20,000 bases of DNA from an uncultured virus (IMG/VR IMGVR_UViG_2838114448_000008) (IMGVR_UViG_2838114448_000008); one strand, 5' to 3'; positions 1 to 20,000 are shown, counted from the stretch's first letter. Numbers and translations: made by a program. The notes: generated by a model from the letters alone, not told the origin.

Positions 1-2
1 TC

Positions 3-3000
3 TTGGACGACCTACAAAGCATTCTGAGCGATATGCGGGTTGAGCAACGCGGCGGAAACAGGGTCCGATTGGCGTCCGAACGATACCGTGCCGTGGTTCG
101 CCTGCAATGGGATAACCAAGCGAAAAATTGGCTGCTCACGGCCTTCGAAAAGAGAAGAAGCGGCATCGGCACGACGACAGGCACTGCCGAACTTTCTGGT
201 GGGGATGACACAGCTCGCTCCACCGCCGCTTCATCTCATAATGTAGACCAAAGCACGCCGGGGTTCCAGAGCCCTGACGAATCCCGCCGCCTCCCCGCCG
301 ACACGCCGACCCCGGATCAAGCCATCCGACAGGGCGAAGCCGGCCTTCGCGACCAGCGCACCACCCAGGGCCAGGGCGAGACCTTGGCCCACCAGCTCGG
401 GCGTATCCGGTCCTACATCCTGCATCCGCGCATGATCGCCAGCCGGCACGCGGGCTTCGTGCCCGTCTACAACGCCGTCATCGACCGGCGCCGGCTGCGC
501 GACAACATCACCATCACCCTGACCGAGAAGCGCCGCCCCTATGTGAACTTGAACGAGGCCAGCAAGCGCAAGGTCAACGCGGTGCTCGAGATCGGCCGCC
601 TCCACCAGTCCAACTACACGGACACCCAGCTGAGAGAGGGCGTCACGACGGCTCTCGAAGGCACATCCGCCGCCACGAAGGGCACCGTCTACCGCCTGAC
701 CGATAAGGAGATCGCGGGCTACCGCGCCTACCGCGAGACCATGGATACGGCGCTGGACCTGTTCCGCGACCAGATGATCGAGGAATGGGCCGACCGTCTG
801 GGTGTGCCGAAGGCCGAGGTGGCGACCCTCAAGCAGATCGCCGAAAAGATCGCCGTCATGGAGGACGGGCCACAGCGGGACCAGTGGCGGCAGTTCTACG
901 ACACCATCTTCCAGATCGAGAACCAGAAGCGAATCGGGTACGTGCCGTTCAGTCGCTGGGGCACCATCGCCGTCAAGGTCACGTCCGAGACCGAGACGGA
1001 GCCTGTTCCCGGTGCCGAACCGGACCCGCAGACCGGAGAGGTCCCGACCCGGCCGAAACTGGTGCGCTGGGAGAAGATCGAGATCGACGGCATGGGCCAA
1101 GCCGCGCAGCGGGCTATCGAGGCCGCCTTGCAGCGCGGTGACGGCGGCCGGATCGCGCAGATCCCGGCCGTGCGCAAACGGCTCGCAGCGCTGCGCCGGC
1201 AGTACCCGGAGGGCGCGTTCAAGATCAACCCGCCGCGCGAATTGGCCGGCCCCCTCAACACCGAGGACGTCACCATCGCCGGCATCGACGCCCTCGCCAA
1301 CAACGCCGGCATCGCCCAGAACAAGGCCTACGGGGAAGTCCGGGACGCACTTGAGGATGCGATCCAGGCCCGCGGCTTCCGACGGCACTTCTTCCAGGCC
1401 CGCAACGTGCCCGGATACAGCGGCGACCTGGACCGGGCTGGCGCGGACTATGTCGTCGGGATCGCGCGCTACCTGTCCGACCGGCACTACCGCCAGCCGA
1501 TCGAGACGGCGCTCGGCAAGATCGACCCGCGCCAGAAGCGCCTGAAGGACTATGCCGACCGCTACGTGGACTACGTCGATCAGCCGCAGGAGGAGTGGCA
1601 GACGCTCCGCGCCTTCGCGTTCTACTACCTGCTGACCGGCTTCGGATCGGCCTTCGTCAACCTTACCCAGGTGCCAATCATCACCGCACCGTATGCCGCC
1701 ATGTTCGAAAGCAACCCCGGCCGCCTCGCCTGGCAGTTCGCGCGGGCCGCCGGCGAGGCCATGGCGATGGTCACGGTCAAGAACGGCTGGGAGGCCTTCG
1801 ATCCAAGCAAGGCGCCAAAGGACGTGCGCGACGACCTCACTGCCGCGTGGCACGACGGCCAGATGTGGCCGCAGACGTCATTCGAGGAAATGGCCCTCGC
1901 CCATCGCCGTACCCTGTTCCAGAACCTCGGGCACACGGCCGCATCCGATGCCGGCCGGATCGGCGGCAAGGCCCTGGGCGGCGCCTTGGAAACGCTGACC
2001 CTGATGTTCTCGTTCGCGGAGCGGTTCAACCGGATCGTGACGTTCATCGTTGGCCACCGGCTGGGGCAGAAGCCGGGGACGAAACGGCGGCTGGCCGAGA
2101 TTTACGCCAAGAACCCGCTCGCCCGCTCCAACGTGGTGCTGGATCCAAGCCCGCGCGCGGTCGGGACGTGGCTCATCGAAGAGACCCACTACCGCATGGG
2201 CAAGGAGAACCGCGCGGCCATCGGACGCGGACCGGGAGCCCCGATCACACAGTTCAAGGGCTTCATGATGCAGACCCTGGAACTGTACGCCCGCATGGCG
2301 ACCCGTCATGGCCCGGCCGGCCGGCGGGCGTTCGCTGGCATGATGGTCATGCTGCTGATGTCGGGGGGCGCGTTCGGCCTGCCTGGCGCGGACGACCTGA
2401 AGGATATGATCGAGGCCCTATGGCGTCAGTATTTCGGGGTCGACCGCGACTTCGAGACCGAGTTCCGCGAAGCGCTGATCGAACTGACCGACAGCCGCAC
2501 CGTCGCCGAGGTGCTGGCGCGCGGCGCATCGCGGGCCACCCCGGTTGACCTGGGCCGTCGCATCGGCTTGGGCGACCTGATCCCGACCGCTCAGCGCGAC
2601 ATGGATTGGTCTGATCTGGCCGGGCCGGCCGTCTCGACGGTCACGCAACGGGCCCGCCAGTTGGCCGTCGCCTCTAGCCGCGATGACTGGTCCGAGGCGA
2701 TGGCGCTGGCCCTGCCCGCCCTCGTTCCGGCCTTCCTGCAATATCCCCTCCAGGGCCTCGTGACCTATCCGACCGTCGGCGTCGTCTCGTCCTACGACGG
2801 CATGACGCTGATCCGGCCGGAGGACATCCAGACCGACGATCAGATGTGGAAGGCCCTCGGCTTCACCTCGACCCGCCTCTCGCGCGAATGGGAGGCCCGG
2901 GAGGCCATCCGCCGGCGCGGCTCCGCCGTCGATGTGCTGCGCTCACGCACATACATGAAACTCGCCCTGGCTCTGGCGGAGCAGATGCAGGCCGAGGAAG

Positions 3001-3233
3001 CCGGCGACACGGCTCGCGCGGATGCCGCTGACCGACGCTACCGGGACGTGCTGGCCGCCAACGCCCTGCACAACGAGGCCGTCCGCGCCGCTGGACGCGA
3101 GTGGGAAGAGGTGCATGTGCGAAAAGCCACCCTCATTCGCAAGGTCCACGAGCTGATCGAGGGCAAACGCCCCCAACTGCCCCAACGCCTCCAGGGCACC
3201 CAGGAGCGGACCGAAGCGGTGTTCGGCCACTGA
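3..3233 (+). CDS. C-terminal part (5'-truncated by window edge) of a large phage internal virion / polyvalent protein; N-terminal barnase/colicin E5-like (PBECR-type) nuclease segment and PLxRFG-like domain
   Basis: Open for >1076 codons from the window edge with strong GC3 bias. 'NRVRLASERYRAVVRLQWDNQAKNWLLTAFEK' resembles PBECR nuclease domains of polyvalent proteins. 'GYVPFSRWG' resembles the PLxRFG motif. The helical C-terminus with 'QFKGF..Q.LE' and 'GG..GLPG' is typical of podovirus ejection proteins. Sits directly before the lysis genes. Confidence 0.75.
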   Translation: MDDLQSILSDMRVEQRGGNRVRLASERYRAVVRLQWDNQAKNWLLTAFEKRRSGIGTTTGTAELSGGDDTARSTAASSHNVDQSTPGFQSPDESRRLPADTPTPDQAIRQGEAGLRDQRTTQGQGETLAHQLGRIRSYILHPRMIASRHAGFVPVYNAVIDRRRLRDNITITLTEKRRPYVNLNEASKRKVNAVLEIGRLHQSNYTDTQLREGVTTALEGTSAATKGTVYRLTDKEIAGYRAYRETMDTALDLFRDQMIEEWADRLGVPKAEVATLKQIAEKIAVMEDGPQRDQWRQFYDTIFQIENQKRIGYVPFSRWGTIAVKVTSETETEPVPGAEPDPQTGEVPTRPKLVRWEKIEIDGMGQAAQRAIEAALQRGDGGRIAQIPAVRKRLAALRRQYPEGAFKINPPRELAGPLNTEDVTIAGIDALANNAGIAQNKAYGEVRDALEDAIQARGFRRHFFQARNVPGYSGDLDRAGADYVVGIARYLSDRHYRQPIETALGKIDPRQKRLKDYADRYVDYVDQPQEEWQTLRAFAFYYLLTGFGSAFVNLTQVPIITAPYAAMFESNPGRLAWQFARAAGEAMAMVTVKNGWEAFDPSKAPKDVRDDLTAAWHDGQMWPQTSFEEMALAHRRTLFQNLGHTAASDAGRIGGKALGGALETLTLMFSFAERFNRIVTFIVGHRLGQKPGTKRRLAEIYAKNPLARSNVVLDPSPRAVGTWLIEETHYRMGKENRAAIGRGPGAPITQFKGFMMQTLELYARMATRHGPAGRRAFAGMMVMLLMSGGAFGLPGADDLKDMIEALWRQYFGVDRDFETEFREALIELTDSRTVAEVLARGASRATPVDLGRRIGLGDLIPTAQRDMDWSDLAGPAVSTVTQRARQLAVASSRDDWSEAMALALPALVPAFLQYPLQGLVTYPTVGVVSSYDGMTLIRPEDIQTDDQMWKALGFTSTRLSREWEAREAIRRRGSAVDVLRSRTYMKLALALAEQMQAEEAGDTARADAADRRYRDVLAANALHNEAVRAAGREWEEVHVRKATLIRKVHELIEGKRPQLPQRLQGTQERTEAVFGH

Positions 3234-3255
3234 GCGCGGCGGGACAAGCCGTAGG

Positions 3256-3621
3256 GTGACCGAAGACCACCCCACGGAACCCGGCGCGCCCATGACCACT
3301 CCGATCACCTTCGAAGTCCTGGGGACCATCCTGACCATCATCGCGACCACGGTAGGGGTGGCGATCTGGATCGTGACCGAGATCGCGAAGAGCCGGCGAG
3401 ACTCCCAGGACGGGCGGCGGGAGCTGTATGCCCGGATCGACCAAAACATGCATGAGATCGCGGAAACCTATATGCGCCGCGACCTGCATGACGCCGAGAT
3501 GCGAGCCGTCCAGCACTCCTTGCAGGAAACGAACACCATCCTGTCGAACATCACCAACCGCGTTTGCCCATTCGAGGCGCGCCCGGACCCAGGGGACCGT
3601 CCTTCGCAGGAGACACGATGA
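3256..3621 (+). CDS. Holin-like single-TM membrane protein of the prophage lysis cassette (alternative start ATG 3292)
   Basis: One hydrophobic segment (VLGTILTIIATTVGVAIWIV) followed by a charged coiled coil. Its stop overlaps the endolysin start (ATGA at 3618-3621). Confidence 0.55.
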   Translation: MTEDHPTEPGAPMTTPITFEVLGTILTIIATTVGVAIWIVTEIAKSRRDSQDGRRELYARIDQNMHEIAETYMRRDLHDAEMRAVQHSLQETNTILSNITNRVCPFEARPDPGDRPSQETR

Positions 3622-4271
3622 TGGTCGAGACCCCGAGCCTTTATTCCCACTACCGCGATGTGCCGGCCGGCTCCTGGCGCTGGCCGCATTTCAGCCCGGC
3701 CGAAATCGCCTGTCGGGGAACCGGGGAAATCCTGGTCCATCCGCAGGCGCTCGACGCGCTGGAAGCCCTGCGCGCTGCCCTGGGCGGCAAGCCTCTGATC
3801 GTCAACAGCGCGTACCGGTCCGCGACGCACAACAAGGCGGTTGGTGGCGCCACGCACTCCAAACACCGCGAGGGCACCGCCTTCGACATCGCGTGCGGCA
3901 ACGTCCACCCGACCGTGCTGCGCGATGCCGCCATGGCCTGCGGCTTTCAGGCCGCCGCCTACTACCCCAAGCAGGGATTCGTGCATGTGGACCTGGGACC
4001 GCCCCGCTCCTGGGGCCCGGCGTTCCCGGCCCGACCGCTTGTGGATGGCGAGGACGACGAACGGTTCGCGGTCGAGAAGACCAAGCCCGCGCCCGGCAAA
4101 GTCTCGACCGCCGTTGGTCTGGGCACGTCCGTTGCCGGCGGAGGGGCCGCCATCCTGGAGCAGTTCGATGGCGACCTCGCCAAGCTCGCCGTCGTGGCCT
4201 TGGTCCTGCTGGTCGGCGGCGCTCTCCTTGCGGCGTGGCGTCTGGGTTGGTTGACGGAGCGTGCGCGGTGA
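3618..4271 (+). CDS. Endolysin, peptidase M15 (D-Ala-D-Ala carboxypeptidase/YcbK-like) family with C-terminal hydrophobic segments
   Basis: AGGAG RBS before ATG 3618. M15 motifs 'SAYRS..HN..VGGA..SKH..G.A.DI' and 'FVHVD'. C-terminal 'LAVVALVLLVGGALLAAW' is TM-like. Confidence 0.85.
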   Translation: MMVETPSLYSHYRDVPAGSWRWPHFSPAEIACRGTGEILVHPQALDALEALRAALGGKPLIVNSAYRSATHNKAVGGATHSKHREGTAFDIACGNVHPTVLRDAAMACGFQAAAYYPKQGFVHVDLGPPRSWGPAFPARPLVDGEDDERFAVEKTKPAPGKVSTAVGLGTSVAGGGAAILEQFDGDLAKLAVVALVLLVGGALLAAWRLGWLTERAR

Positions 4272-4669
4272 TCGGCGCTATCGGGCTCGTCGCCCGTTTC
4301 GGCCCGGCCTTTGCCGTCGTCGGCGTGCTTCTGGCGGCGGCCGCAGGGGGATCGTGGATCACGTCGACCGTAGACGAACGCGACCAACTGGAACTGGAGA
4401 CAGCGGAGCAGCGCGAAACCATAGCGGCCTACGACGCCGCGCTGAAAAAGGCCGAGGCGGATCGGCGGGCCGTCGAAGCGGCGCTAGGCCGCGCTGCTGA
4501 GCAAACCGCGCGTCTCGTCTCCGACCGCGCCACCATCCTGGAGGACCTAAGCCATGCGACCGCTCCGGACTGTCCTGTGCCTGATGCTGTGCGCCGCGCC
4601 GTTGATCGCCTGTACTCCGGCGAGGGAAGTGGCTGGGCCGCCGACCGAGGCCCGCAAGCCGATCCCTGA
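4268..4669 (+). CDS. Inner-membrane spanin (Rz-like)
   Basis: GTG start coupled to the endolysin stop (GTGA 4268-4271). N-terminal TM (FAVVGVLLAAAAGGSWI), long Ala/Glu/Arg coiled coil, C-terminal 'DCPVPDAVRRAVDRL'. Confidence 0.75.
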   Translation: MIGAIGLVARFGPAFAVVGVLLAAAAGGSWITSTVDERDQLELETAEQRETIAAYDAALKKAEADRRAVEAALGRAAEQTARLVSDRATILEDLSHATAPDCPVPDAVRRAVDRLYSGEGSGWAADRGPQADP

Positions 4670-4868
4670 CGCGCTGATGGACTGCCCGGAGGGATCCGAG
4701 AGGCCGGATCGGATCGACATAGTGTCCCTGTCGATCACCCTGGCCGAGGAACGAACCGCCGGGGAAATCTGTCGCGCCAGGATGCGGGAAATCAGGGATC
4801 TGGTGACCCCAGCACCTCGGCGCGGCGGGCCCGCCCTGCCTCTGTCAGGCTCCACCGACCCTCGATAG
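4554..4868 (+). CDS. Outer-membrane lipoprotein spanin (Rz1-like), overlapping the i-spanin in another frame
   Basis: GGAGG upstream. Signal peptide MRPLRTVLCLMLCAAPLIA-C with lipobox LIAC. Pro-rich 'IPDALMDCP' and a second Cys. Starts inside the i-spanin gene. Confidence 0.8.
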   Translation: MRPLRTVLCLMLCAAPLIACTPAREVAGPPTEARKPIPDALMDCPEGSERPDRIDIVSLSITLAEERTAGEICRARMREIRDLVTPAPRRGGPALPLSGSTDPR

Positions 4869-4998
4869 GGGGAGCCACCAGCCCAGCCCGCAAGGCCCTG
4901 ACAGACAGCCATATCGGCACATCAAAGTCCAGGTGCCCGTCTTGATCGGCCCCCATAAGCCACAGGGTCACGGCGTGGTCTTCGGTCAAGCGTGTCAT
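4792..4998 (-). CDS. Small hypothetical protein with a winged-helix-like C-terminal signature
   Basis: 68 aa. 'ALRAGLV....GRWSLTEAGRAR' pattern is typical of small wHTH proteins. Overlaps the o-spanin 3' end convergently. Confidence 0.4.
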   Translation of the reverse strand: MTRLTEDHAVTLWLMGADQDGHLDFDVPIWLSVRALRAGLVAPPIEGRWSLTEAGRARRAEVLGSPDP

Positions 4999-5301
4999 GA
5001 TAGGCGGCCCGATGCTCTTCCCAGCGAATTCACTTTGTCACGCCCCCGCCCGCATTTCAACTCCCGCCGCGCGGGGCTCTCTCTTAGGTCGAGACCGGAA
5101 AAGGTCCGGCCGACGCGCACACTGACGCGCACCGTGACCGTAGATGGCGTCGCCGTCAGCCTCGATCATACGGTGGATGGCGCGGCGGTCGGGGTCTACA
5201 TCACGCCACCGGATCAGACCGAGCCGGAGGTCCGCATCCTGTGTCACCGGCTTTCGGTGGCGCTGTGCCGGCTGATCCAGGACCGGCCAGCGGACCTTTG
5301 A
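4933..5301 (+). CDS. Possible small hypothetical protein (true start probably downstream of the ORF-track start)
   Basis: C-terminal half (TVTVDGVAVSLDHTVDGAAVGVYITPP...LCRLIQD) is protein-like with GC3 bias. The N-terminal half is not convincing. Confidence 0.3.
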   Translation: MPVLIGPHKPQGHGVVFGQACHDRRPDALPSEFTLSRPRPHFNSRRAGLSLRSRPEKVRPTRTLTRTVTVDGVAVSLDHTVDGAAVGVYITPPDQTEPEVRILCHRLSVALCRLIQDRPADL

Positions 5302-5485
5302 CCTGCGCCCCGTCTAGGTACGCGGCGGGCCGCGATCAAGCGCGCCACGACGTCTTCTCTATAAGCGATCCAAGCCGCCAGCAACCGCTTCCGTTTCGCC
5401 CCGCCAACGTCGCCGATAGCCCGAAACAGCGATTAAACTGATAGCCATAGGTCGCAAATCGCACCTACCCACCCTTCTCCACATA

Positions 5486-5494
5486 TGGTATAAT
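5486..5494 (+). promoter_or_regulatory. Extended -10 promoter element (TGgTATAAT) upstream of the PRTase-DprA operon
   Basis: Perfect TGnTATAAT about 140 nt upstream of ATG 5636, in an AT-rich intergenic region. Confidence 0.55.
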
Positions 5495-5566
5495 TGTTCG
5501 CGATATCGTGGCGACGGCTAATATTCTCAATCCCCATATCCGCGCGACGAGAGCAATCGAACCCAA

Positions 5567-5591
5567 ATCGGTTGATCTAAAGTCAACCGAT
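5567..5591. promoter_or_regulatory. Perfect inverted repeat ATCGGTTGA-N7-TCAACCGAT (operator or leader hairpin)
   Basis: 9-bp arms read directly from the sequence, about 45 nt before the PRTase start. Confidence 0.45.
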
Positions 5592-5635
5592 CCAAAATAA
5601 AAAAATCACGTCAGCAAAAAAGTGGGAAGTTTAAT

Positions 5636-6307
5636 ATGTCGATACCAAGCTGGACCCCTTTTGGTACAATGATGTATTTTCCTCGTCTGGATGCAAGCGG
5701 ACACACGCTTCCTGTTTACACCATAGGGTGGCGCTTCACTGATGATGCCGATGAGTGGTCAAGGCGTTTCATTGGCTTTAAAAATGGCGAACGCGAACAT
5801 TTGCGCGGCGCCGCCCGGGCCTTAAGGTACTGCATGCAGGACTTTGTGTATAAGAAAAAATTAAAAAAAGAAAGCACTGGATTATTAACCGCCATATATT
5901 CTTCAAAGACAAGGTCAGAAGAAAATTCTTCCTTATATATACTTGGAAAGTGGCTGTCGGCTCAGTTGGATGTAAAATTTCTTTCACATCACCTTACAAA
6001 AGAGGTGCACAGATCCCTTCATAGCTTGGGGTCAAGGTACGATCGAGATTCGGAGGTTTTTCAAAAATATAGATGCACGAAAATTACTGGAGTAACTGAT
6101 GTTATTATTTTAGATGATCTTGTTACTAGGGGCGCTACATTTAAAGATATAAGTCGATCGATCGAAAAAAGTACGCCCGGAGTCTCAGTATACGGAATTG
6201 CTCTTGCCAAAAATGAGAGGGTTTCGTATGCTAAACAATGCGGAGCCTCCATAAGTAATGGTCATATACCGGAAAATATGAATAGGTTATGGATTGGAAG
6301 TAAATAA
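5636..6307 (+). CDS. ComF-like type I phosphoribosyltransferase (ShosT-like putative toxin)
   Basis: PRPP-binding motif 'VIILDDLVTRGATF'. AT-rich codon usage. Abuts the DprA gene (TAA ATG at 6305-6310). Confidence 0.8.
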   Translation: MSIPSWTPFGTMMYFPRLDASGHTLPVYTIGWRFTDDADEWSRRFIGFKNGEREHLRGAARALRYCMQDFVYKKKLKKESTGLLTAIYSSKTRSEENSSLYILGKWLSAQLDVKFLSHHLTKEVHRSLHSLGSRYDRDSEVFQKYRCTKITGVTDVIILDDLVTRGATFKDISRSIEKSTPGVSVYGIALAKNERVSYAKQCGASISNGHIPENMNRLWIGSK

Positions 6308-7228
6308 ATGAGCTCCATTGTATCAAATGAAACCTACCGCATACTGAAACTTTCAGTGACACCGGGAGTTGGCGCAGCTTGTTTGCGTAAGATATCCTTA
6401 TTTGCTCAGAAAAATGGAATCGAATCACTTTACAATGATAGAGATGTATACAAGTTTCTGCCCTCAAGAATAGAAGCGTATAACGCAGAGAGCTCAAGTA
6501 CATCTGCGGACAAAATTCTTGTGTCCTGTGATGAAAACAATGTTCGTTTGATATCGTTTCTAGACCCCCTATACCCTGCCGCATTAAAAAGTGTCCCCGA
6601 CTTTCCAGTTCTCCTTTATATAAAGGGCGACGCAGCAGCCCTCTCGAAGGTTGGCTGCGCTGTCGTCGGAACGAGGCACGCAAGTAAGCTTGGGCTTAGC
6701 TGGGCTCGGCAAATTGCCTCACTACTTGTTAAGAACGGATTTTGCGTCGTTAGTGGTCTCGCGCTCGGAATTGATACGGCAGCTCACGAAGGCGCTTTAC
6801 AGGCTGGCGGGGCTACGGTGGCGGTCATGGCCCATGGTCTTGATAAGGTGACGCCAGCAAGAAATAAGAACCTATCGACCCAAATAATTGAAAATGGTGG
6901 AGCCCTGGTTTCTGAACATGCTCCTGGAGTTCCGCCCCGAAAACAAGAGTATGTTCGTAGAAACAGGATACAAAGCGGCCTTTCTATATGCTCTTTAGTG
7001 GTAGAGAGCAGCGAAAGCGGCGGATCAATATATCAGGGCAAGTTTACATTGCAACAGAATAGGAAGTTATTTTGTATTATGCCCCCTGAAAATACACGCG
7101 GGGTATCCGACTTTCAGGCAGCGGGCGCGAGGAGGTTGATTAGAGAAGCGGGAGCCAAGCCGATTGGCTCGAGCGAGGAGTTGCTTTCGGCAATTAATTC
7201 CGCAGAGATAACCAACTCAATGAACTAA
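6308..7228 (+). CDS. dprA: DprA/Smf-family DNA-processing protein (ShosA-like putative antitoxin)
   Basis: Motifs 'YP..L....D.P.LLY.KG', 'AVVGTR.AS', 'VVSGLALGIDTAAH', 'RRNRIQSGLS', 'VVES...GGS'. Lacks the C-terminal extension of housekeeping DprA. Accessory, AT-rich copy. Confidence 0.9.
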   Translation: MSSIVSNETYRILKLSVTPGVGAACLRKISLFAQKNGIESLYNDRDVYKFLPSRIEAYNAESSSTSADKILVSCDENNVRLISFLDPLYPAALKSVPDFPVLLYIKGDAAALSKVGCAVVGTRHASKLGLSWARQIASLLVKNGFCVVSGLALGIDTAAHEGALQAGGATVAVMAHGLDKVTPARNKNLSTQIIENGGALVSEHAPGVPPRKQEYVRRNRIQSGLSICSLVVESSESGGSIYQGKFTLQQNRKLFCIMPPENTRGVSDFQAAGARRLIREAGAKPIGSSEELLSAINSAEITNSMN

Positions 7229-7306
7229 AGCTCTTAGCGTCGTGGATGGCGTCCCAGAGCTCAGTGACGGTGCGGACGCCGCAGATGGAACCGCGTAAGC
7301 ATTTGC

Positions 7307-7684
7307 CTACTTCGCAGCCACTCCCAATAGGAAATCGAGAAACCCCCGCCGCGCATCAGGCCGCAAGGCCCTGTACGCCTCCAGGACTTCGCGCTCCTCG
7401 GGATCATCCGACGCCGCGGAGTTGCCACCTGCTAGCGGATCATGCTGTCCGAAGAAGGTAGAGACGGGAACGCCGAGAACACGGGCCGCTGAAGCCATGG
7501 CGCTGACGGTGATGATCACGCTGCCATTCTCCAGCCGGTGGACCTGAGCCGGCTGCATCCCCATGCGCTCCGCCATGTCAGCCACCGACAGGCCCGCGCG
7601 TTCCCGCGCCTCTCGGATGGACTGGCCTATGTCGCGCTCCAAGGCAACGTTCCGCTGCCCACGGCGCCGCACGCTTTCATTCAT
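7307..7684 (-). CDS. XRE-family helix-turn-helix transcriptional regulator
   Basis: 'IGQSIREARERAGLSVADMAERMGMQPAQVHRLENG' Cro/C1 HTH and the typical 'EEREVLEAYRAL' C-terminus. Confidence 0.85.
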   Translation of the reverse strand: MNESVRRRGQRNVALERDIGQSIREARERAGLSVADMAERMGMQPAQVHRLENGSVIITVSAMASAARVLGVPVSTFFGQHDPLAGGNSAASDDPEEREVLEAYRALRPDARRGFLDFLLGVAAK

Positions 7685-7759
7685 TGAAAGCCCCCCCTAC
7701 TGTCACCCATTGATAGCATAGGGGCTGGTGGCGCTATAGCCTTTCTTTAGTTGTGTATC

Positions 7760-7781
7760 TCCCCTAACGAAAGTTAGGGGA
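7760..7781. promoter_or_regulatory. Perfect palindrome TCCCCTAAC-GAAA-GTTAGGGGA upstream of the XRE gene (candidate operator or hairpin)
   Basis: 9-bp perfect arms, about 75 nt upstream of the XRE start codon. Confidence 0.45.
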
Positions 7782-7893
7782 TCTCGCGGGACTCAAAACT
7801 TCAGCGATGGCTCGCCGCGACGGGCGGCTCGCGCCAAAACCACGACGGTCCGAAAAACGGGATTCTTAGCACTCGTCGGATCCTCGAACTGAC

Positions 7894-8322
7894 TCACCTT
7901 GAAACGCAGTACCCTGGCAGAGGCATTCGCTGCGCCTCGGGCTGCTCATCTTCAGCGTATCGGCCGCCGCTGAAACGCGGGCAATCGCGCCCGAGGCCGG
8001 CGCGGACAAGGGCCGCCGCAATATCATGGTGATCGATCGAGCACACCCCGATCATTCGGTCGTATGACCTTTCGCCCGTCAGCGTGCAGGTGACGATCCG
8101 GCCGCCAACCAAGGTGCGCATGAACCGCGCTGCCTCAGGGCCGCCAGGGTCGGCCAGCTCCGGAGCATGCAAGCCCTGGAGTCGGATCGGCTGACCGGAA
8201 ACCACAATCGTGTCGCCGTCGCGGACGTGCGTGACCTGACCGGTCAGTGTGTCGGTGGCGTAGGCGGAGGTCATCATGATGATGGTCATAATGGTGGCTA
8301 GCTGGGCGGAGATACAATGCAT
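7894..8322 (-). CDS. Secreted thermonuclease (SNase family)
   Basis: GAGGT RBS before ATG 8322. Signal-peptide-like N-terminus ending SAYA. SNase motifs 'VRDGDT', 'IRLQGLHAPE', 'SYDRMIGVC', 'LVRAGL'. Confidence 0.85.
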   Translation of the reverse strand: MHCISAQLATIMTIIMMTSAYATDTLTGQVTHVRDGDTIVVSGQPIRLQGLHAPELADPGGPEAARFMRTLVGGRIVTCTLTGERSYDRMIGVCSIDHHDIAAALVRAGLGRDCPRFSGGRYAEDEQPEAQRMPLPGYCVSR

Positions 8323-8422
8323 CGGCGGGACCTCATACTCGAAACAAATTGTGGTGGCCTCAATCCGGCCACCACCTTCTTTCGGCATACTTCTTCGCTA
8401 ATCGCAGCGAAAAACGGCACAA

Positions 8423-8435
8423 TAACCGATTGATT
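8423..8435 (-). promoter_or_regulatory. IHF-consensus site next to the putative attR junction
   Basis: Minus strand reads AATCAATCGGTTA, an exact match to WATCAANNNNTTR, 13 nt from the start of the capsid fragment. Confidence 0.6.
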
Positions 8436-8448
8436 TTAGGAACGAACC

Positions 8449-8532
8449 CACTTCGTGAACAACATGATGAGCCAGGGCGCGGTGCTGATCGACGGGGCCG
8501 GCGTGGCCTCCCTGCCCTGCCACGAAGACTGA
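8449..8532 (+). pseudogene. Orphan 3' end of a major capsid protein gene (HFVNNMMSQGAVLIDGAGVASLPCHED*)
   Basis: Clean GC3-rich codons begin at 8449, with in-frame TGA (8431) and TAG (8437) just upstream. The peptide matches my recollection of the C-terminus of alphaproteobacterial podovirus-type capsid proteins. It occupies the capsid position (before terminator, small gene and tubular A/B). Confidence 0.75.
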
Positions 8533-8560
8533 TCCCCCTCTCGCCGATCCCCCAGTCGTG

Positions 8561-8601
8561 CGCCCGCGTGTCGTCCGGTCCCGAACCGCGCGGGCGTTTT
8601 T
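8561..8601 (+). terminator. Intrinsic terminator-like hairpin after the capsid stop
   Basis: CGCCCGCG (8561-8568) ... CGCGGGCG (8589-8596) followed by TTTTT. Confidence 0.55.
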
Positions 8602-8622
8602 GCCTCCGAAGGAGACCCCGCC

Positions 8623-8865
8623 ATGGCCTTTGCCCCTCAGGATCTGTCGGTGCTCTGTTACGCCAACGGCTTCACGCTCTGGCACTACACCACCGACGAC
8701 ACCGCCGCCGCCGTCACCGGCGCCCGGTATTTCGATCCGGCCGCGCCCTATGTACGCGTCGGCGATGTGATGATCTGCAACACCGATACGGATGGGACGC
8801 CCGGCGCGGCGCTCTACCGCGTGGCGGGCAACGCCGACGGCGCGGTCAGCGTGGCGGCGGTGTAG
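8623..8865 (+). CDS. Small conserved virion-cluster protein (candidate head decoration protein)
   Basis: AAGGAG RBS. 80 aa. 'DLSVLCYANGFTLWHYTT' is an N-terminus I recall from similar alphaproteobacterial clusters. Position right after capsid; function is inferred. Confidence 0.7.
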   Translation: MAFAPQDLSVLCYANGFTLWHYTTDDTAAAVTGARYFDPAAPYVRVGDVMICNTDTDGTPGAALYRVAGNADGAVSVAAV

Positions 8866-8894: not shown

Positions 8895-8922
8895 ACCCCG
8901 CCCCTCACCGGGCGGGGTTTCT
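8895..8922 (+). terminator. Intrinsic terminator-like hairpin
   Basis: ACCCCGCCC-ctcacc-GGGCGGGGT followed by TTCT. Confidence 0.6.
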
Positions 8923-8970: not shown

Positions 8971-9540
8971 ATGCCCCTGTCCGCCGTCGCCCTGTGTTCC
9001 CGCGCGCTCATCGCGATCGGCGCCGGCCCGCTCACCAGCCTGGACGACGGCACCGCCGAGGCCCAGGTGGCCGGCGCCCTGTACCCTGGTGTGCGCGACG
9101 CCCTGCTGTCGGCGCACCCCTGGACCTTCGCCACCGCGCAGACCGCCCTGGCGCGGCTGTCGGAGGTGCCGGCGGCCGACTTCGCCCATGCCTACCGGCT
9201 GCCCGGGAACCACCTGCGCACCCTGTCGGCCGGCGCGGGTGGAAGCGGGAGGGGGCTGGTCTACCGTCAGGCCGAGGCGCGGCTGTGGACCGACGCCCCC
9301 GCCGTGACCCTGACCTACATCTTCCGCCCGGACGAAAGCGCCTTTCCCGCGCCCTTCGTCGAGGCCCTGGCGGCGCGGCTGGCCGCCGCGTTCTGCCTGC
9401 CGCTGACCGAAAGCACCAGCCGGGCGCAGCTTCTCCATCAGCTGGCGGAGGATGCGGTGCGCGCCGCCCGCCTGATCGACAGCCAGCAGGACACCCCGCC
9501 CGCGCTCGCCCACTTCCCGCTGGTGGAGGTGCGCGGATGA
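8971..9540 (+). CDS. Tail tubular protein A / head-tail adaptor (T7 gp11-like)
   Basis: GAGGAGG RBS. 189 aa. 'LCSRALIAIGAGPLTSLDD', 'LLSAHPWTFA', 'AYRLP', 'FP..FVEALAARLAA'. Coupled to the next gene by ATGA. Confidence 0.8.
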   Translation: MPLSAVALCSRALIAIGAGPLTSLDDGTAEAQVAGALYPGVRDALLSAHPWTFATAQTALARLSEVPAADFAHAYRLPGNHLRTLSAGAGGSGRGLVYRQAEARLWTDAPAVTLTYIFRPDESAFPAPFVEALAARLAAAFCLPLTESTSRAQLLHQLAEDAVRAARLIDSQQDTPPALAHFPLVEVRG

Positions 9541-11441
9541 CCCGGGTCAACGTCACCCAGACCAACTTCACCGCCGGCGAGCTGTCGCCCGATCTGTATG
9601 GCCGCTCGGACCTGCGCGCCTACGTCAACGGCGCGGCCCGGCTGCGCAACGTGTTCCTGCGCCCGACCGGCGGCGTGGCGCGCCGCGACGGGCTGCGCCA
9701 CCTCGCCACCCTGCCGGGGCGCGCCCGGCTGATCGCGTTCACGTTCAACAGCGAGCAAACCTACCTGCTGGTGTTCACCGACGGCCGCATGGATGTCTAC
9801 CTCGACGGCGTGAAGGCCTTCCACACCGCGACCCCCTGGGACGCCTGGCACCTGCCCGGGCTGTCGTGGACCCAGATGGCCGATACGCTTCTGGTCGTCC
9901 ATCCGGAGACCGCGCCCCGGCGCATCACCCGGGCCTCGCACACAAGCTGGACCATCCGCACCTGGACCTATCCCAACGAGGGCCAACGCTATTTCGAGCC
10001 CTATTACCGCTTCGCCAACCCGCTCATCAGCCTGACCCCCTCGGACGTCGTGGGCGCCATCACGTTGACCGCGTCCTCGCCCGTGTTCGCCCCGGCCCAT
10101 GTGGGCACCCGCCTGCTCCTGCGGGGCAAGCCGGTCTCCATCACCGGCTATACGGCGGCCGACGCGGTCACGGCGACCCTGCACGAGGAGATCGAGAACG
10201 CCTATGCCACCCGCGACTGGGTAGAACAGGCGCTGTCGCCCGTGCACGGCTATGCCCGCAGCGTCACGTTCCACCAGAACCGGCTGGTGATCGGCGGCTC
10301 GCGCGACGTGCCGCATCATCTGTGGATGTCGAAGGTGGGCGACCTGTTCAACTTCGACACCGGCGAGGGGCTGGACGACGAGGCCATCTCCTTCGATCTG
10401 CTGTCGGACCAGCTCAACGCCATCCGCGCCGTGTTCTCGGCCGGGGACCTGGAGGTGTTCACGTCCGGCGCGGAATGGACCATCAGCGGCAGCCCCCTGA
10501 CCCCGGGCGCGCTGACCGCCCGCCGCCAAACCCGGATCGGTACCCTGGGGCCGCACACCGTGCCGCCGCGCCGCGTGGACGGAGCCACCCTGTTCGTGGG
10601 CGCGACCGGGCGCGACCTGCGGGAGTACCTATTCACCGACCTGGAGAACGCCTATCAGGCCGCCGACCTCGCCCTGCTGGCCCGGCACCTGATCCACGAT
10701 CCGGTGGACATGGACTACGACCCGGTGCGGCGGCTGCTGCATCTGGTGCGGTCCGATGGCCGGCTGGCCACGATGACGAACTACCGCGCGGAAAAGGTCA
10801 CCGCCTGGACCCTGCAGGAGACGGACGGCGCCATTCAGGCCGTCGCGGAGGTGGGCGGCGCGGTCTATGTCGCCGTGGAGCGCGCCAACGGGGTGAGCCT
10901 GGAGCGGTTCGACCCGGCCCTGGCCCTGGACGCCGCCCTGCCCGGACAGGCGACGACACCGCGCACCACCTGGAGCGGCCTCGGTAATCTGGAGGGCCGC
11001 ACCGTGCGCGTGCTGGCCGATGGCAACGATGTCGGTTCGGCCGTGGTCGCGGGCGGGGCGATCACCCTGGAGGGCCCCGCCCGCGATGTCGTCGTCGGCC
11101 TGCCCTTCACGCACGAGATCGCCCCGCTTCCCCCGTCAGTGTCCGGCGGGCGCGGCGGCGGCCCGGGCACGTTGGTCCGCCTGATCCGGGCCACGCTGCG
11201 GCTTCAGGACACCGCCGCGCTGTGGCTGGACACCGGCGCCGGCCCCTCGATCCAGCCGTTCCGCGCCTTCGGCGGCGGGCCCGTCCTCGACCAGCCACCC
11301 CGGCCCCTGTCCGGGGACCTGTCCGTCCGCGCGCTCGGCTGGCAACGCGACCCGATGGTGCCCCTGTGGCGGGTGATCCAGGACGCCCCCCTGCCCTGCA
11401 CCGTTCTCAGCGCCACCCTTGAAGTAAAGGTCACCGACTGA
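9537..11441 (+). CDS. Tail tubular protein B / nozzle (T7 gp12 / P22 gp10-like)
   Basis: 634 aa. N-terminus 'QTNFTAGELSP...GRSD...Y.NG...LRN....TGGV.RR.G', plus 'VTFHQNRLVIGGS', 'WMSKVGD.FNF', 'FTSGAEW'. True start is ATG 9537, not the ORF-track 8349. Confidence 0.85.
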   Translation: MTRVNVTQTNFTAGELSPDLYGRSDLRAYVNGAARLRNVFLRPTGGVARRDGLRHLATLPGRARLIAFTFNSEQTYLLVFTDGRMDVYLDGVKAFHTATPWDAWHLPGLSWTQMADTLLVVHPETAPRRITRASHTSWTIRTWTYPNEGQRYFEPYYRFANPLISLTPSDVVGAITLTASSPVFAPAHVGTRLLLRGKPVSITGYTAADAVTATLHEEIENAYATRDWVEQALSPVHGYARSVTFHQNRLVIGGSRDVPHHLWMSKVGDLFNFDTGEGLDDEAISFDLLSDQLNAIRAVFSAGDLEVFTSGAEWTISGSPLTPGALTARRQTRIGTLGPHTVPPRRVDGATLFVGATGRDLREYLFTDLENAYQAADLALLARHLIHDPVDMDYDPVRRLLHLVRSDGRLATMTNYRAEKVTAWTLQETDGAIQAVAEVGGAVYVAVERANGVSLERFDPALALDAALPGQATTPRTTWSGLGNLEGRTVRVLADGNDVGSAVVAGGAITLEGPARDVVVGLPFTHEIAPLPPSVSGGRGGGPGTLVRLIRATLRLQDTAALWLDTGAGPSIQPFRAFGGGPVLDQPPRPLSGDLSVRALGWQRDPMVPLWRVIQDAPLPCTVLSATLEVKVTD

Positions 11442-12172
11442 TGGCTCAGTTCGCCACCGCCTTTGTGCCCTTCGCGCTTCAGGCCGCCACCAGCGCCTGG
11501 CAGCAGTACGAATACTACGACCGGTATCAGCGCCAGCAGCAGGCGCAGGCGGCCGCCGATCAGGCCGGCGCCCAGGCTGCGCGGCAGCAGGCCGAGGCGC
11601 AGGCCACCCGAACCGCCGACAGCGCCACCCAAGCCAACCGCGCCGCCTGGCAGGAGCACGACGCCTGGGCCGCCCAGCGCGACCGCGACAGCGCCGCCGC
11701 CGTCACCGCGCTGAACCGGGATTTTGCCCGCACGGAGTTGGAGCGCGCCGATGCCCTGCGCCGGCAGGCGGCGACCGAACGCGCCCGTTTCGCCGGCATG
11801 GGGTTGGATGCGGCGGCCGGCTCCGCCCGCGCGGTGCTGTCCGGCCTAACGCAGGAGGCCGCGACCCAGACCCGGCGCGACGCCGACACGCTCACCCAGC
11901 GGACGGGCGACCTGAACCGGGACGCCCGCGCCGACATCGCCGCCGGCTGGGACGCGACGGCGCGGGAGACCGCCGACCGCGCACACGCGGCCAACCTCGA
12001 CATCTGGCAGCGTCAGGTAGACCTCGACAGCGCCCTGTATGCGCGCGGGGTGCGTCAGGACGCGTTCGCCCAGCGCGATCTGCTCGACCTGTCGGTCAGC
12101 CACCAGCGCGCCGCACTCGGCCTTGTCGACGCCGGCATCGGTGCAGTCGGGGCCTACGCGCGGCGCCGCTAA
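11441..12172 (+). CDS. Small internal virion (ejection) protein, T7 gp14-like
   Basis: TGATG coupling. Ala/Gln-rich helical protein with the 'RARFAGMGL...GS..AVL' motif typical of this class. Follows tubular B. Confidence 0.6.
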   Translation: MAQFATAFVPFALQAATSAWQQYEYYDRYQRQQQAQAAADQAGAQAARQQAEAQATRTADSATQANRAAWQEHDAWAAQRDRDSAAAVTALNRDFARTELERADALRRQAATERARFAGMGLDAAAGSARAVLSGLTQEAATQTRRDADTLTQRTGDLNRDARADIAAGWDATARETADRAHAANLDIWQRQVDLDSALYARGVRQDAFAQRDLLDLSVSHQRAALGLVDAGIGAVGAYARRR

Positions 12173-12220: not shown

Positions 12221-13450
12221 ATGACCGCGCCGATCCAGATCGGGGACACGCGCCCCCGCGTCCAGTACGTGGGGGACGGCGCCCAGACCGCGTTTGCCTA
12301 TCCATTTGCGGTGGACGACGCCGACGCCCTCCACGTCTATGTGAACGAGATCCGCATCACCACCGGCTTTGCCGTGGACGGGATCGGCGCGGTGGAAGGC
12401 GGCACCGTCACCTTTGCCGTCCCGCCCGCCGCCGGGAGTCGCGTCACGCTGCTGCGCCAGCTCGGGCTCGGCCGGGTCACCGTGTTCCAGCCCGGCGGGC
12501 CGTTGCGGGCCGAGGCCTTGAACGACGCGCTGGACCACCTGACGGCGGTGGACCAGCAGCTTGATGACGCCATCCGCCGCACGGTCCGGTTGGCGCCGGG
12601 CGCCGCCGAGACCGCCGACCTGACCCTGCCGGAGCCGCAGGCCGGGGCCGTGTTGGGCTGGGACGCCACCGCCACCGGGCTGGTGAACGCGGTGCCCGGT
12701 GGGGTCTCGGCCTTGCCAGCCGACCTGGAGGGGCTGCTGCGCCGACACACCGCGCGCGCCGAGGCCTGGGCGGAAGACGCCGCCGTGTCGGCGTGGCGGG
12801 CCGGCCTGCGCGACGCTGGCAGCGCGGGTGGGATCCAACCGGACGCACCGCTGGTCGCGGCCAGCCTGACCACGACGGGAAACATCACGGTCGGGGGCGC
12901 GCTGACGGTGGAGGGGGCCACGCTGTCGGCCTGGGGCCGCACGCTGCTGACCGCCGAGAATGCGGCGGCGGGGCGCACGGCGCTCGGGCTCGGCCCGGTC
13001 GCGACCGCCGACCGCACCGCCTTCGCCACCGCCCTGCAGGGTACAACCGCCGACACCGCCCTTCAGCCAGGGGATGACGCGACCCTGGGCCTGCTGGACT
13101 ACACCGCCGGCCGGCCCCGGGCGCACACCGCGACGGTCCGCGCCGCGCACACCGTGACCCTGACCGAGGGCGAGATTCAGACCCTCACCCTGACCACCGA
13201 CACCGTCCTGACGCTGCCGGACCCGCCGGCCGGACGCGGGGCGTCGATGCTCCTCGTCCTGATCCAGGACGGCACGGGGGGACGCACGCCCGCGCTCCGG
13301 ACGGCGGACGGCGCTCCGCTGCGCTGGCTCGGCAGGAGCGCCCCGTCCTGGCAGACCGCCGCCGGCGCGTTCGACGTCGTGGCCGTCACGCACGCGGGCG
13401 CCGTGTCGTTCGCGGCCCATATCGGGGCCCATATCGGGGAAAACGCCTGA
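12221..13450 (+). CDS. Tail fibre protein with T7 gp17-like N-terminal attachment domain
   Basis: GGAGGAG RBS. 'YVGDGAQTAFAYPF', 'GGTVTFAVPPAAG..VTLLR', 'F..GG.LRAEALNDALD.LT...QQ', C-terminal 'LVLIQDGTGGRT' module. Confidence 0.8.
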   Translation: MTAPIQIGDTRPRVQYVGDGAQTAFAYPFAVDDADALHVYVNEIRITTGFAVDGIGAVEGGTVTFAVPPAAGSRVTLLRQLGLGRVTVFQPGGPLRAEALNDALDHLTAVDQQLDDAIRRTVRLAPGAAETADLTLPEPQAGAVLGWDATATGLVNAVPGGVSALPADLEGLLRRHTARAEAWAEDAAVSAWRAGLRDAGSAGGIQPDAPLVAASLTTTGNITVGGALTVEGATLSAWGRTLLTAENAAAGRTALGLGPVATADRTAFATALQGTTADTALQPGDDATLGLLDYTAGRPRAHTATVRAAHTVTLTEGEIQTLTLTTDTVLTLPDPPAGRGASMLLVLIQDGTGGRTPALRTADGAPLRWLGRSAPSWQTAAGAFDVVAVTHAGAVSFAAHIGAHIGENA

Positions 13451-14337
13451 TGCCCGGCAACGCCATCCCGCGCACCATCCCCGTGTTCATCCGACCCGCC
13501 AGCGGGGATCGGCTCGATCTGGTCACGGCCGGGGTGATCCAGCCGGCCGCCACGTTCTCGCGGGCCTCCGCGGCGATCCTGTGGGACGGCACCGCGTTCC
13601 GGGCGGTCGATCCCGACGTCCCGCGCGTCGAAGGTGGCGCGCTGGTCATCGAGCGCGCCGCAACCAACAGCGCGTACCACGCGACGGACATAGGGGCGCT
13701 CTCGTCCAGCTCCGCGATCATCACCCCACGCGACGCCTTCGGGGTCGGGGCCTGGGCCACGCTGACCGCCAACGCCGACGGGTCGGCCCTGCTGATCGGC
13801 AGCGCCGACGGCATGACGGTCGGGGAGACCTACACGTTCTCCTGCTACGTCCGCGCGGGGACACGCGACCACATCTTTTTGCAGGGTCGGCAAAGCGGGT
13901 ATCCGAAAACGATCTTCGACCTCGCGGCGGGCGCAATCAGCGCCGAAGCGTCCGAGTACACCAGTGCCATCACACCGCTTGGCAACGCCGTCTTTCGCTG
14001 TTCCATCCGGTTTGTTTCGGACACCGCGGGATCCTACATCGTCGCGCTTGGCTTCACGGCACAGACCGGGGACTCGGTCGACGTTTACGGCCGGCAGCTT
14101 GAGCGCGGGCCCGGCCCCACGTCCCTGATCGCGACCAGCCGCGGGTCCGCGACGCGCGCCGCCGACGTCCTGAGCCACAGGCCCACAACGGCCGGCACCG
14201 TGCACCTGATCGGCACCGCCGCCGACGGCACCGCGTACCCGGCGGACACCCCCGGCACCGCCCCGGTCACCGCCGGCATCCCCTGGACCGCCCCACCCGG
14301 CCGCTGGTCCGACGTGTGGGTCACGCCCGCCGCCTGA
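13450..14337 (+). CDS. Spike/fibre protein with carbohydrate-binding-like module (head spike fibre-like), paralogue 1
   Basis: TGATG coupling. Motifs 'TFSRAS', 'LVIERAATN', 'YTFSCYVRAG', 'QLERG..PTSLIAT...ATRAADVL'. Confidence 0.65.
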   Translation: MPGNAIPRTIPVFIRPASGDRLDLVTAGVIQPAATFSRASAAILWDGTAFRAVDPDVPRVEGGALVIERAATNSAYHATDIGALSSSSAIITPRDAFGVGAWATLTANADGSALLIGSADGMTVGETYTFSCYVRAGTRDHIFLQGRQSGYPKTIFDLAAGAISAEASEYTSAITPLGNAVFRCSIRFVSDTAGSYIVALGFTAQTGDSVDVYGRQLERGPGPTSLIATSRGSATRAADVLSHRPTTAGTVHLIGTAADGTAYPADTPGTAPVTAGIPWTAPPGRWSDVWVTPAA

Positions 14338-14389
14338 CCCGCCTCCCCCCTCCATCCATTCCGTCCTGCTAGTTGCCATGGAGACCGGC

Positions 14390-15641: not shown

Positions 15642-15995
15642 ATGACCGCCGCACCCGCGCCCGACACCGTCCCCGATCTGTCCGCCGCGCGCGACCGCCT
15701 GCGCGCGTCCCTGCCCGAGACCCTGCACCGTGCCCTGGATGCCTACGACGCCTTCGCCGCCCGCCCCGTGCCGGAGGACGCCAAAGCGTTCAGCGCCTGG
15801 CAGACCGGCTGCAAGGCCGTGCTGGCCCATATCGAGCTGCTGCTGAAGCTGGCGGGGCGGGTCGGGCTGGACCTGTCCGACGCCGGGGACGACGACCCGC
15901 TGGCCGCGCTCCTGGCCCGCGCCCGGGCCGCCATGGCGGAGGGCGACGGGACGGATGAGGAGAGCGAGGGCGACGAGGACGCCCCGGATGACTGA
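15642..15995 (+). CDS. Small helical protein, candidate terminase small subunit
   Basis: GAGGA RBS. 117 aa with acidic tail. Overlaps the TerL start by 8 nt. Function is inferred from position only. Confidence 0.5.
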   Translation: MTAAPAPDTVPDLSAARDRLRASLPETLHRALDAYDAFAARPVPEDAKAFSAWQTGCKAVLAHIELLLKLAGRVGLDLSDAGDDDPLAALLARARAAMAEGDGTDEESEGDEDAPDD

Positions 15996-19688: not shown

Positions 19689-20000
19689 ATGCTTGACGCC
19701 GAGTCCCACCTGCTGTGGGTCACGGCGGTCGAGGTGCCCGTGCTGGGCGCCTTGTTCTGGCTGGTCTGGCGCAACCGCCGGGACACCGACGACCGCCTGA
19801 CCGAGACCCAGCGCCGCGCCGACATCGCCATCGCCCAGACCAAGGACGCCCTGACCGCCTTCAAGCTGGAGGTGGCGCGCTCCTATGCCTCGATCAGCAC
19901 CTTGAAGGACGTCGAGGCCCGCCTGACCGCCCACCTGCTGCGCATCGAGACCAAGCTGGACGAGACCCGCGCCCGCGCGCTGGAAACGCATGGGCCGTAG
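19689..20000 (+). CDS. Single-TM coiled-coil membrane protein (holin-like) of the resident virion cluster
   Basis: GGAG RBS. 'LLWVTAVEVPVLGALFWLVW' TM, then 'FKLEVARSYAS...LKDVEARLTAHLLRIETKLD'. Codon style matches the structural cluster. Confidence 0.6.
   Translation: MLDAESHLLWVTAVEVPVLGALFWLVWRNRRDTDDRLTETQRRADIAIAQTKDALTAFKLEVARSYASISTLKDVEARLTAHLLRIETKLDETRARALETHGP

Follow-up and report, generated by a model that had tools for sequence, protein, structure and literature searches.

The stretch of DNA analysed here (the window) comprises 20,000 nucleotides of an uncultured virus listed in IMG/VR as IMGVR_UViG_2838114448_000008 and corresponds to C8:116677-136676 of a 57-contig draft genome (4.6 Mb, ~68% G+C) of a Roseospira bacterium. 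Coordinates with the prefix C8 refer to the host contig, while plain coordinates refer to the window. Our subject is a junction at which the right arm of an inserted temperate phage adjoins the 3' end of a major capsid gene that belongs to a resident T7-like gene cluster. An initial annotation of the window had proposed that a prophage was integrated within this capsid gene. The features at the junction are as follows:

1..8448, plus strand: right arm of the inserted temperate phage, recognised by the direct repeat, the junctions and the gene content (most of the insert lies upstream of the window)
8423..8435, minus strand: predicted IHF site with the exact consensus, on the phage side of attR and 14 bp away from the core
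8449..8463, plus strand: attR copy of the 15-bp recombination core, encoding capsid codons H-F-V-N-N (exact repeat of the attL copy at C8:71743-71757)
8449..8532, plus strand: last 27 codons and stop of the resident T7-like cluster's major capsid gene, orphaned (from alignment to intact relatives)
8560..8602, plus strand: terminator-like hairpin and U-run after the capsid stop, from its fold

The initial annotation had described a start-less fragment of 27 codons preceded by two in-frame stops, and both are present. Read in frame 1 from 8401, the DNA gives D, a stop, F, a stop and then ERTHFVNNMMSQGAVLIDGAGVASLPCHED, closed by a further stop; the fragment thus occupies 8449-8532 including its stop codon, and the two preceding stops are located at 8431-8433 and 8437-8439. 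The peptide, which had been taken for a capsid C-terminus, matches the last residues of the intact capsids (272-276 residues) of relatives. An intact relative covers positions 1-293 of the 293 positions of the Pfam family Phage_capsid_2, while the 5' piece of the gene in this genome (see below) ends at position 273. On the phage side of the fragment, the exact IHF consensus reported earlier, WATCAANNNNTTR, was located at 8423-8435 on the minus strand as the single match in the window; 0.07 matches per window are expected by chance, and at least one match appeared in 15 of 200 shuffles. On the other side, the proposed terminator takes the form of a G+C-rich hairpin followed by UUUUU at ~8560-8602, with a folding energy of -27.7 kcal/mol and a z of -1.75 (9 of 200 shuffles fold equally well). 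A simple terminator scan of the window called hairpins at 8351-8375 and 8895-8918 and did not call the one at 8560-8602, because the loop of this hairpin is long. Both of the tubular A and B genes expected downstream are whole, and an extra gene of 80 residues, absent from the initial annotation, lies between them and the capsid fragment.

The upstream 5' portion of the capsid gene, predicted at the same time, was found on the same contig, 53.4 kb away. The first 250 codons are located at C8:71008-71757 (PF19821, Phage_capsid_2, 1.9e-75, profile positions 1-273 of 293; phrog_3437 'major head protein', 7e-62), and genes for a T7-type portal (PF12236, 1e-132) and a T7 scaffold protein (PF05396, 5e-13) lie directly upstream. 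The duplicated core that such an integration should leave was recovered as well: CACTTCGTGAACAAC occurs exactly at C8:71743-71757 and at 8449-8463 of the window, on the same strand, the two copies of this 15-bp direct repeat being 53,382 bp apart. BLAST against the 4.6-Mb genome found no copy of the window's 15-mer other than the one at attL, and a genome-wide search for a second copy of a 30-residue peptide or of the junction DNA returned nothing beyond the att repeat and chance-level matches. The core spans capsid codons 246-250, and both capsid pieces meet it in the same reading frame; placed on the capsids of relatives, they align end to end and overlap only in HFVNN. At the left junction, capsid homology ends with ...GDRAAHFVNN within the core copy, and the open reading frame (ORF) continues for 141 unrelated codons, which overlap the integrase gene on the opposite strand and resemble nothing in capsids. 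Since the two core copies are identical and stand in the same frame, exact excision would return a gene of 272 codons, that is, of normal length.

Between the core copies lies an insert of 53,367 bp (C8:71758-125124), and IMG/VR lists the same element, measured from repeat to repeat, as a provirus of 53,397 bp. The anticipated integrase is there: a tyrosine integrase of 341 residues (PF00589, 1.4e-17; C8:71866-72891, minus strand) stands beside attL, its stop codon ~110 bp away, and is followed by an excisionase-type helix-turn-helix (HTH) protein (HTH_17/TIGR01764), so that both genes fall within 110-1300 bp of attL.

Since the genome is a draft in many contigs, one might suppose that a phage contig was misjoined to a capsid fragment. 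However, the same 15-bp core stands in frame at both junctions, IMG/VR delimits the identical element, and the public runs speak against a misjoin. Two such runs, X1 and X2, hold the junction; they were consulted as assembled contigs (Logan) rather than raw reads, and they are not fully independent, because they possibly come from one strain. In X1, a single contig of 35 kb spans the junction. In X2, the assembly is interrupted precisely at the core, where the graph branches into chromosome and attP: a phage-side contig of 23.7 kb and depth 670 has its end at 8463, a chromosome-side contig of depth 269 begins at 8434, and a 45-nt contig (depth 325) links 8434-8463 to GAACGGGCACCCCGC. As the last 15 letters of the 45-nt contig are those that follow the core at attL, it represents the attP joint that forms when the phage excises or replicates. 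A further chromosomal contig of X2 has a depth of 275, and phage DNA stands at ~2.5x the chromosome. The phage is active, that is, it excises or replicates in culture. No public RNA runs holding the junction are listed. With all this in view, we regard an assembly artefact as having a negligible probability, and we hold the anatomy of the locus and the mechanism of integration with high confidence.

If a phage has entered the capsid gene, an uninterrupted allele is to be expected in relatives, and this is what was observed. The 5' capsid piece was used as the query against a family sample (119 genomes from 30 genera of the same GTDB family) and gave matches in 37 of the 119 genomes, covering 12 of the 30 genera and six of the seven other species of the genus. 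In all 29 of the family loci fetched, the capsid is whole, and its ORF of 272-276 residues passes through MMSQG to the stop. A profile scan restricted to one genome per species, with an alignment that excluded the two capsid fragments of this genome, gave 587 relatives, and the best 80 named records examined all hold full-length capsids. Among them are Roseospira navarrensis (95% identity in the 5' part), R. goensis, R. visakhapatnamensis, Caenispirillum, Telmatospirillum, Terasakiella, Novispirillum, Roseospirillum, many Azospirillum and others. In a wider order sample (401 Rhodospirillales genomes, 136 genera), the capsid occurs in 222 genomes and 69 genera, nearly always as one match per genome; among the 150 order matches listed, beyond which there were 86 weaker ones, only that of this genome ends at profile position 251. 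A capsid-profile scan of IMG/VR also gave intact genes in its best 80 matches, a ranking that hides interrupted capsids.

The insert carries the full set of phage modules, namely a repressor and genes for replication and recombination, packaging, portal, capsid, tail and lysis-like functions. Behind the integrase and excisionase genes come recombination genes, an HTH regulator, a MazF-like gene and an S24 CI-type repressor; further genes encode methyltransferases, a RuvC-like resolvase, a helicase, TerS, TerL and a portal. The major head protein (phrog_334) belongs to a family distinct from that of the resident capsid, and it is accompanied by an Hc3-type adaptor and fibre genes. The nearest relatives of this head protein, at 30-39% identity, are those of Acidovorax AP1, Pseudomonas KPP25/phiR18 and Stx2 phages, all of which we take to be short-tailed, and no matches to tape-measure, tube or sheath families were found in the insert. 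For these two reasons, the earlier assignment to a temperate podovirus is plausible in its second part, while in its first part it stands: the element is a complete temperate phage.

The cluster into which this phage has inserted is of another kind. Portal, scaffold, tubular A and B, and large terminase genes of T7 type are present in T7 order, and their ORFs are intact in this genome. On the left, the cluster is bounded by transketolase, TRAP-transporter and secreted protease-cadherin genes; on the right, by an amidase gene and then housekeeping genes. Between these flanking host genes, the cluster contains no RNA or DNA polymerase, replication genes, integrase or large internal core proteins, and it is a late module only, of ~17 kb. 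The order portal, scaffold, capsid, 80-residue gene, tubular A, tubular B, fibres, small gene, TerL is kept in seven of the ten relatives compared, and rearranged or half missing in three. In the present genome, 53 kb now separate the portal end of the cluster from the tail and terminase genes, which stand behind the hairpin and a convergent nuclease gene. NCBIfam gave no names for the capsid, portal and tubular proteins of the cluster.

Lacking polymerases, an integrase and large internal core proteins, such a cluster might be seen as the decaying remnant of a T7-like prophage, with the phage simply having landed in junk DNA; frameshifted or truncated copies in four relatives (G309, G420, G438 and G004) would agree with decay. 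Nevertheless, the cluster is present in more than half of the sampled order genomes, usually as a single match, with capsids 60-95% identical. The identity falls in steps by genus (89-95% within the genus, then 76-82%, 72-73% and 60-65%), and a comparison with R. navarrensis gives 47 synonymous versus 13 non-synonymous codon changes, which indicates purifying selection; the intact ORFs of the portal, scaffold, tubular and large terminase genes point the same way. In addition, the DNA upstream of the portal gene, with a class IV aminotransferase gene, a divergent S24/HTH repressor and small genes, is common to Caenispirillum, Telmatospirillum, Terasakiella, Roseospirillum and one metagenome-assembled genome. 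Within Roseospira, local synteny gives vertical descent no support, since the sequences flanking the cluster upstream in three other species match separate contigs in the present genome; the synteny across five other genera supports it. We consider the idea of a decaying remnant highly improbable. The cluster is best read, from these comparisons, as a phage-derived particle locus that is old and has been passed on vertically in Rhodospirillales, and as a candidate gene transfer agent (GTA). The initial annotation spoke of a GTA-like element. This label is fair, the cluster being conserved, single-copy and free of replication and integration genes; it is also predicted to package DNA, hence GTA-like, because it has a portal and a terminase. 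The production of particles, on the other hand, is a prediction from its genes. Full-text literature searches returned no description of this cluster in print. Older work cited in an Azospirillum genome article (PMC3899980) concerns 'GTA-like' particles with ~10 kb in some strains, which are not connected there with this locus.

Overall, we conclude that a temperate phage has very likely integrated site-specifically within the capsid gene of an old chromosomal cluster of T7 type. The remaining cluster features in the window are as follows:

8623..8865, plus strand: conserved cluster gene of 80 residues (phrog_18004, 1e-13; follows the capsid gene in all 10 relatives compared)
8971..9540, plus strand: tail tubular protein A (phrog_394, 4e-45)
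9537..11441, plus strand: tail tubular protein B (phrog_376, 5e-140; ~32% identity to HTVC010P-type, MEP301 and epsilon15-like phages)
11441..12172, plus strand: cluster protein of 243 residues (52-62% identity in three other named Roseospira species; no family match)
12221..15601, plus strand: fibre region of three genes encoding 409, 295 and 407 residues (phrog_1640, 1e-19; phrog_5939)
15642..15995, plus strand: gene of 117 residues before the terminase (position kept in relatives; no family match)
15955..17490, plus strand: T7-type large terminase (NF033889, 2e-128; phrog_38, 1e-80)
19689..20000, plus strand: gene of 103 residues downstream of the terminase, probably the last of the cluster (after TerL in 5 of 10 relatives compared)

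The position of the 117-residue gene suggests a small terminase subunit. In the fibre region, the 409-residue protein has an N-terminus of T7-fibre type, and the 295- and 407-residue proteins contain the head-spike-fibre domain NF048003 GTA_spike_fiber (3e-30 and 2e-46). The 295-residue protein (13450-14337) is 81% identical to the product of a gene of the inserted phage (C8:93564-94373) and 58-66% identical to copies on another contig of the genome, C15, while proteins at orthologous positions in other Roseospira reach just 25-33%. The difference between 81% and 25-33% therefore suggests that the cluster and local phages have recently exchanged a surface-binding module. Contig C15 (96 kb, 61% G+C), which may be another phage or a plasmid, carries several spike-fibre copies and a fibre N-terminus 83% identical to that of the 409-residue protein. 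A second variable point of the cluster was seen in two relatives: in Roseospirillum parvum (L067), the cluster is broken after the 80-residue gene, with no tubular genes within 10 kb, and in another (L083), a 7.6-kb insert precedes tubular A. At the left end of the cluster, a small proline-rich ORF (C8:67852-68172) lies before the portal gene. Two small genes found immediately upstream of the portal gene in several relatives (R. goensis, R. visakhapatnamensis, Caenispirillum and more) have their homologues on another contig here (C3:367123-367868), and the front of the cluster has thus become detached from them.

On the phage side of the junction, the window contains the following genes:

3..3233, plus strand: C-terminal third of a phage protein of 2901 residues, C8:111204-119909 (phrog_616, 7e-123; phrog_11358; weak DarB-like tail match)
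3428..4669, plus strand: phage protein of 413 residues, possibly of the lysis region (weak Rz-like spanin match; phrog_214, 6e-4)
5636..7228, plus strand: low-G+C moron with a Shosta-like defence pair (ShosT-like 5636-6307, ShosA/DprA-like 6308-7228)
7894..8388, minus strand: staphylococcal-nuclease-like protein, the last phage gene before attR (PF00565, 1.4e-5; phrog_18798, 5e-12)

The 2901-residue protein matches several giant phage protein families without known function and is probably a virion or ejection protein. The moron near attR, with a G+C content of 38-48% against ~68% in the genome, was assigned by PADLOC to ShosA (1.8e-71) and ShosT (1e-9), a combination of DprA/SLOG and phosphoribosyltransferase-like proteins, and it also matches the Pfam family DNA_processg_A (2.4e-61).

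We propose the following scenario. A 53.4-kb temperate and probably short-tailed phage would have integrated by tyrosine-integrase recombination, with the crossover in the 15-bp core at codons 246-250. This event would leave a 5' piece extended by 141 unrelated codons and a start-less 3' piece of 27 codons, and would displace the tail and terminase genes by 53 kb; because the gene is split, its 3' piece start-less and the tail and terminase genes displaced, the lysogen would be unable to make the capsid of the cluster. Precise excision would restore the capsid gene to its normal length. The initial annotation had offered three possible roles for the insertion: inactivation of a competing particle system, replacement of the capsid C-terminus with a phage version, and gating of particle production by excision. 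Inactivation is supported at the level of sequence by the split gene and the start-less 3' piece. Replacement does not hold, as the fusion at attL adds 141 residues unlike a capsid tail; the gating is taken up below. As for the choice of site, the phage would have found a safe harbour, that is, highly conserved core DNA in a gene that the cell can lose harmlessly. On this view, the loss of the resident particle system, and its return in none but induced cells, would follow from this choice. Among the 84 relatives scored, the core DNA is exact in seven and one base off in 41; such high conservation fits a phage choosing a stable and dispensable target. A safe harbour with a collateral knock-out is the explanation that we prefer, and we give it an even chance.

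Several observations weigh against this scenario. Along the 3' piece, 6 of 22 residues differ from the nearest relative, compared with 13 of 250 along the 5' piece, and some of the differing positions are otherwise the same in most relatives; judged from sequence, a restored capsid protein might be impaired. The capsid tail also varies among intact relatives, by 3-4 of 22 residues. The control of the cluster may already be altered, given that the two small genes are on contig C3. Neither X1 nor X2 holds a contig with the empty attB, which is weak evidence because contigs drop rare forms; moreover, the excision in X2 resembles lytic induction rather than a reversible switch, since it is accompanied by over-replication. 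Finally, relatives of the integrase, counted in the order sample at E<=1e-30, occur in 47 of 401 genomes, with a best identity of 48%, and none of the 29 loci fetched has a capsid piece or the core beside the integrase gene. For these reasons, there is no sign of an integrase lineage specialised on the capsid gene. An integrase search in IMG/VR returned the same element and one relative of 42% only. We also considered relaxed selection on the 3' piece and set it aside: the 5 synonymous and 6 non-synonymous changes counted there are uninformative beside the 4-5 and 3-4 found in intact relatives over the same 22 codons.

It is tempting to suppose that the phage serves as a removable spacer, so that particles are made only when DNA damage triggers excision, in a form of regulated gene integrity, or active lysogeny. 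By sequence, excision would be in frame and scar-free, and attP forms in culture. The S24 repressor of the phage is of the RecA-cleavable type, an S24 repressor adjoins the cluster in relatives, and a GAAC-N7-GAAC motif, presumably the alphaproteobacterial LexA/SOS box, is located at C8:67615-67629, ~560 bp upstream of the portal gene. With S24 repressors or a LexA-like motif associated with both, the phage and the cluster could answer the same signal. The motif, however, is not above chance level (0.5 expected per 20 kb). Furthermore, among the 37 family genomes and at least 150 order matches, the phage is present in this genome only, so it has not become fixed as a means of regulation. In X2, the run that shows attP, the phage DNA is over-replicated, so the cell was probably dying. 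Overall, we regard such a regulatory function as quite unlikely.

A further set of observations concerns breaks at the same codon boundary in other genomes: it is the breakpoint in six genomes of two further families. In the first family (f6), the capsid was found in 37 of 66 genomes, and in five of them the BLAST match ends early, at residue 251 in three, at 255 in one and at 263 in one. In three genomes (G411, G470 and G471), the consensus is lost directly after F-I-N-N, in a fourth (G441) it is lost one residue later, and the fifth (G438) holds a stop-ridden remnant ending at the same point. Host DNA (methylmalonyl-CoA mutase, GcrA and other genes) directly follows all five broken capsids, and tubular A was found in none of the five genomes. 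In one f6 member whose cluster is whole, this mutase gene is located ~1.2 kb beyond TerL; since it now follows the break, the breaks are deletions that remove everything between the core and the far end of the cluster. Two of the genera concerned also have intact copies, so there was more than one event. We infer from these sequences that the deletions may have arisen through faulty excision of an element once integrated at the core. In the second family (f25), genome G302 loses homology after F-I-N-N and continues into AT-rich foreign DNA, and its contig ends 270 bp later. In G471 (L245) and G441 (L246), the truncated capsid ORF was also seen to run in frame into a tail of 65-70 residues; the two tails are alike (DFTA-GFK-R...IYLAFA..PFGG...AQARA) despite G+C values of 0.55 and 0.65, and they may be a coding sequence of their own.

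The recurrence of the breakpoint at one codon boundary, in 5 of the 37 capsid-bearing genomes of f6 and in one genome of f25, could be taken as a trace of targeted sabotage, with phages evolved to hit the capsid gene and so to disable a rival or host-killing particle system, for instance to prevent lysis of the GTA type or competition for one receptor. The fibre that is 81% identical in the cluster and the inserted phage would fit, as both could share a target on the cell surface. Even so, the integrase relatives are not associated with capsids, and recurrence does not show purpose, because any highly conserved and dispensable sequence attracts integrases. We consider sabotage unlikely. A broader proposal can be made: the capsid gene of an order-wide GTA of T7 type would be a shared landing site for several unrelated temperate phages of Rhodospirillales. 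Their lysogens would make no particles, the gene would be rebuilt only upon induction by DNA damage, the release of particles would be tied to the phage or vetoed by it, and faulty excisions would explain the repeated losses of tail and terminase genes in other lineages. We put this forward as a possibility, and a rather doubtful one.

The closest published parallel to the integration described here is provided by helper-embedded phage-inducible chromosomal islands (HE-PICIs). Their integrases repeatedly target late genes of prophages, mostly the capsid gene, and, as they supply no replacement end, the gene stays broken until excision; Tommasini, Mageeney and Williams (2023) call this regulated gene integrity serving the embedded element (PMC10111431). 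The two cases share a tyrosine-integrase element inside a phage late gene, here the capsid gene, with no replacement sequence in attP. While the principle is the same in the DNA, the present case does not belong to that group and differs in three respects. Unlike an 11-kb satellite, the element studied here is a 53-kb phage with its own TerS, TerL, portal, capsid and tail; the interrupted element is a replication-less, order-conserved cluster rather than an inducible helper prophage; and the integrase gene points against the interrupted gene. Late-gene integration, so far known for small satellites in helper prophages, here involves a complete and active phage, and its target is a phage-derived cluster that belongs to the chromosomal gene set in half of the sampled Rhodospirillales genomes. 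A single 15-bp stretch of the capsid gene stands out as a recurrent recombination site. Should the cluster be a GTA, we would be dealing with a natural, possibly conditional, viral knock-out of DNA exchange by the host.

Precise excision also restores a split ORF in the cases of skin in sigK of Bacillus subtilis and phi10403S in comK of Listeria. Those elements interrupt cellular genes, and their arrangement is fixed in the species, whereas the gene interrupted here is phage-derived, the arrangement is found in one genome, and excision is apparently coupled to replication.

As for the outer cluster, which may itself be the larger novelty, two groups of systems invite comparison. GTAs of the RcGTA type (Rhodogtaviriformidae) are HK97-type and long-tailed. 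Like them, the cluster is a locus for head, tail and packaging functions that lacks genes for replication and integration and is conserved widely across an order of Alphaproteobacteria, and its fibre proteins carry GTA_spike_fiber domains; unlike them, it is T7-type and short-tailed. The nearest phage relatives of its tubular protein B belong to HTVC010P-type, MEP301 and epsilon15-like podoviruses (~30-33% identity over 90-100%). These are complete phages of ~35-40 kb, while the cluster consists of ~17 kb of late genes and, unlike T7-like phages of the Autographiviridae type, has no RNA polymerase, DNA polymerase or internal core proteins of its own.

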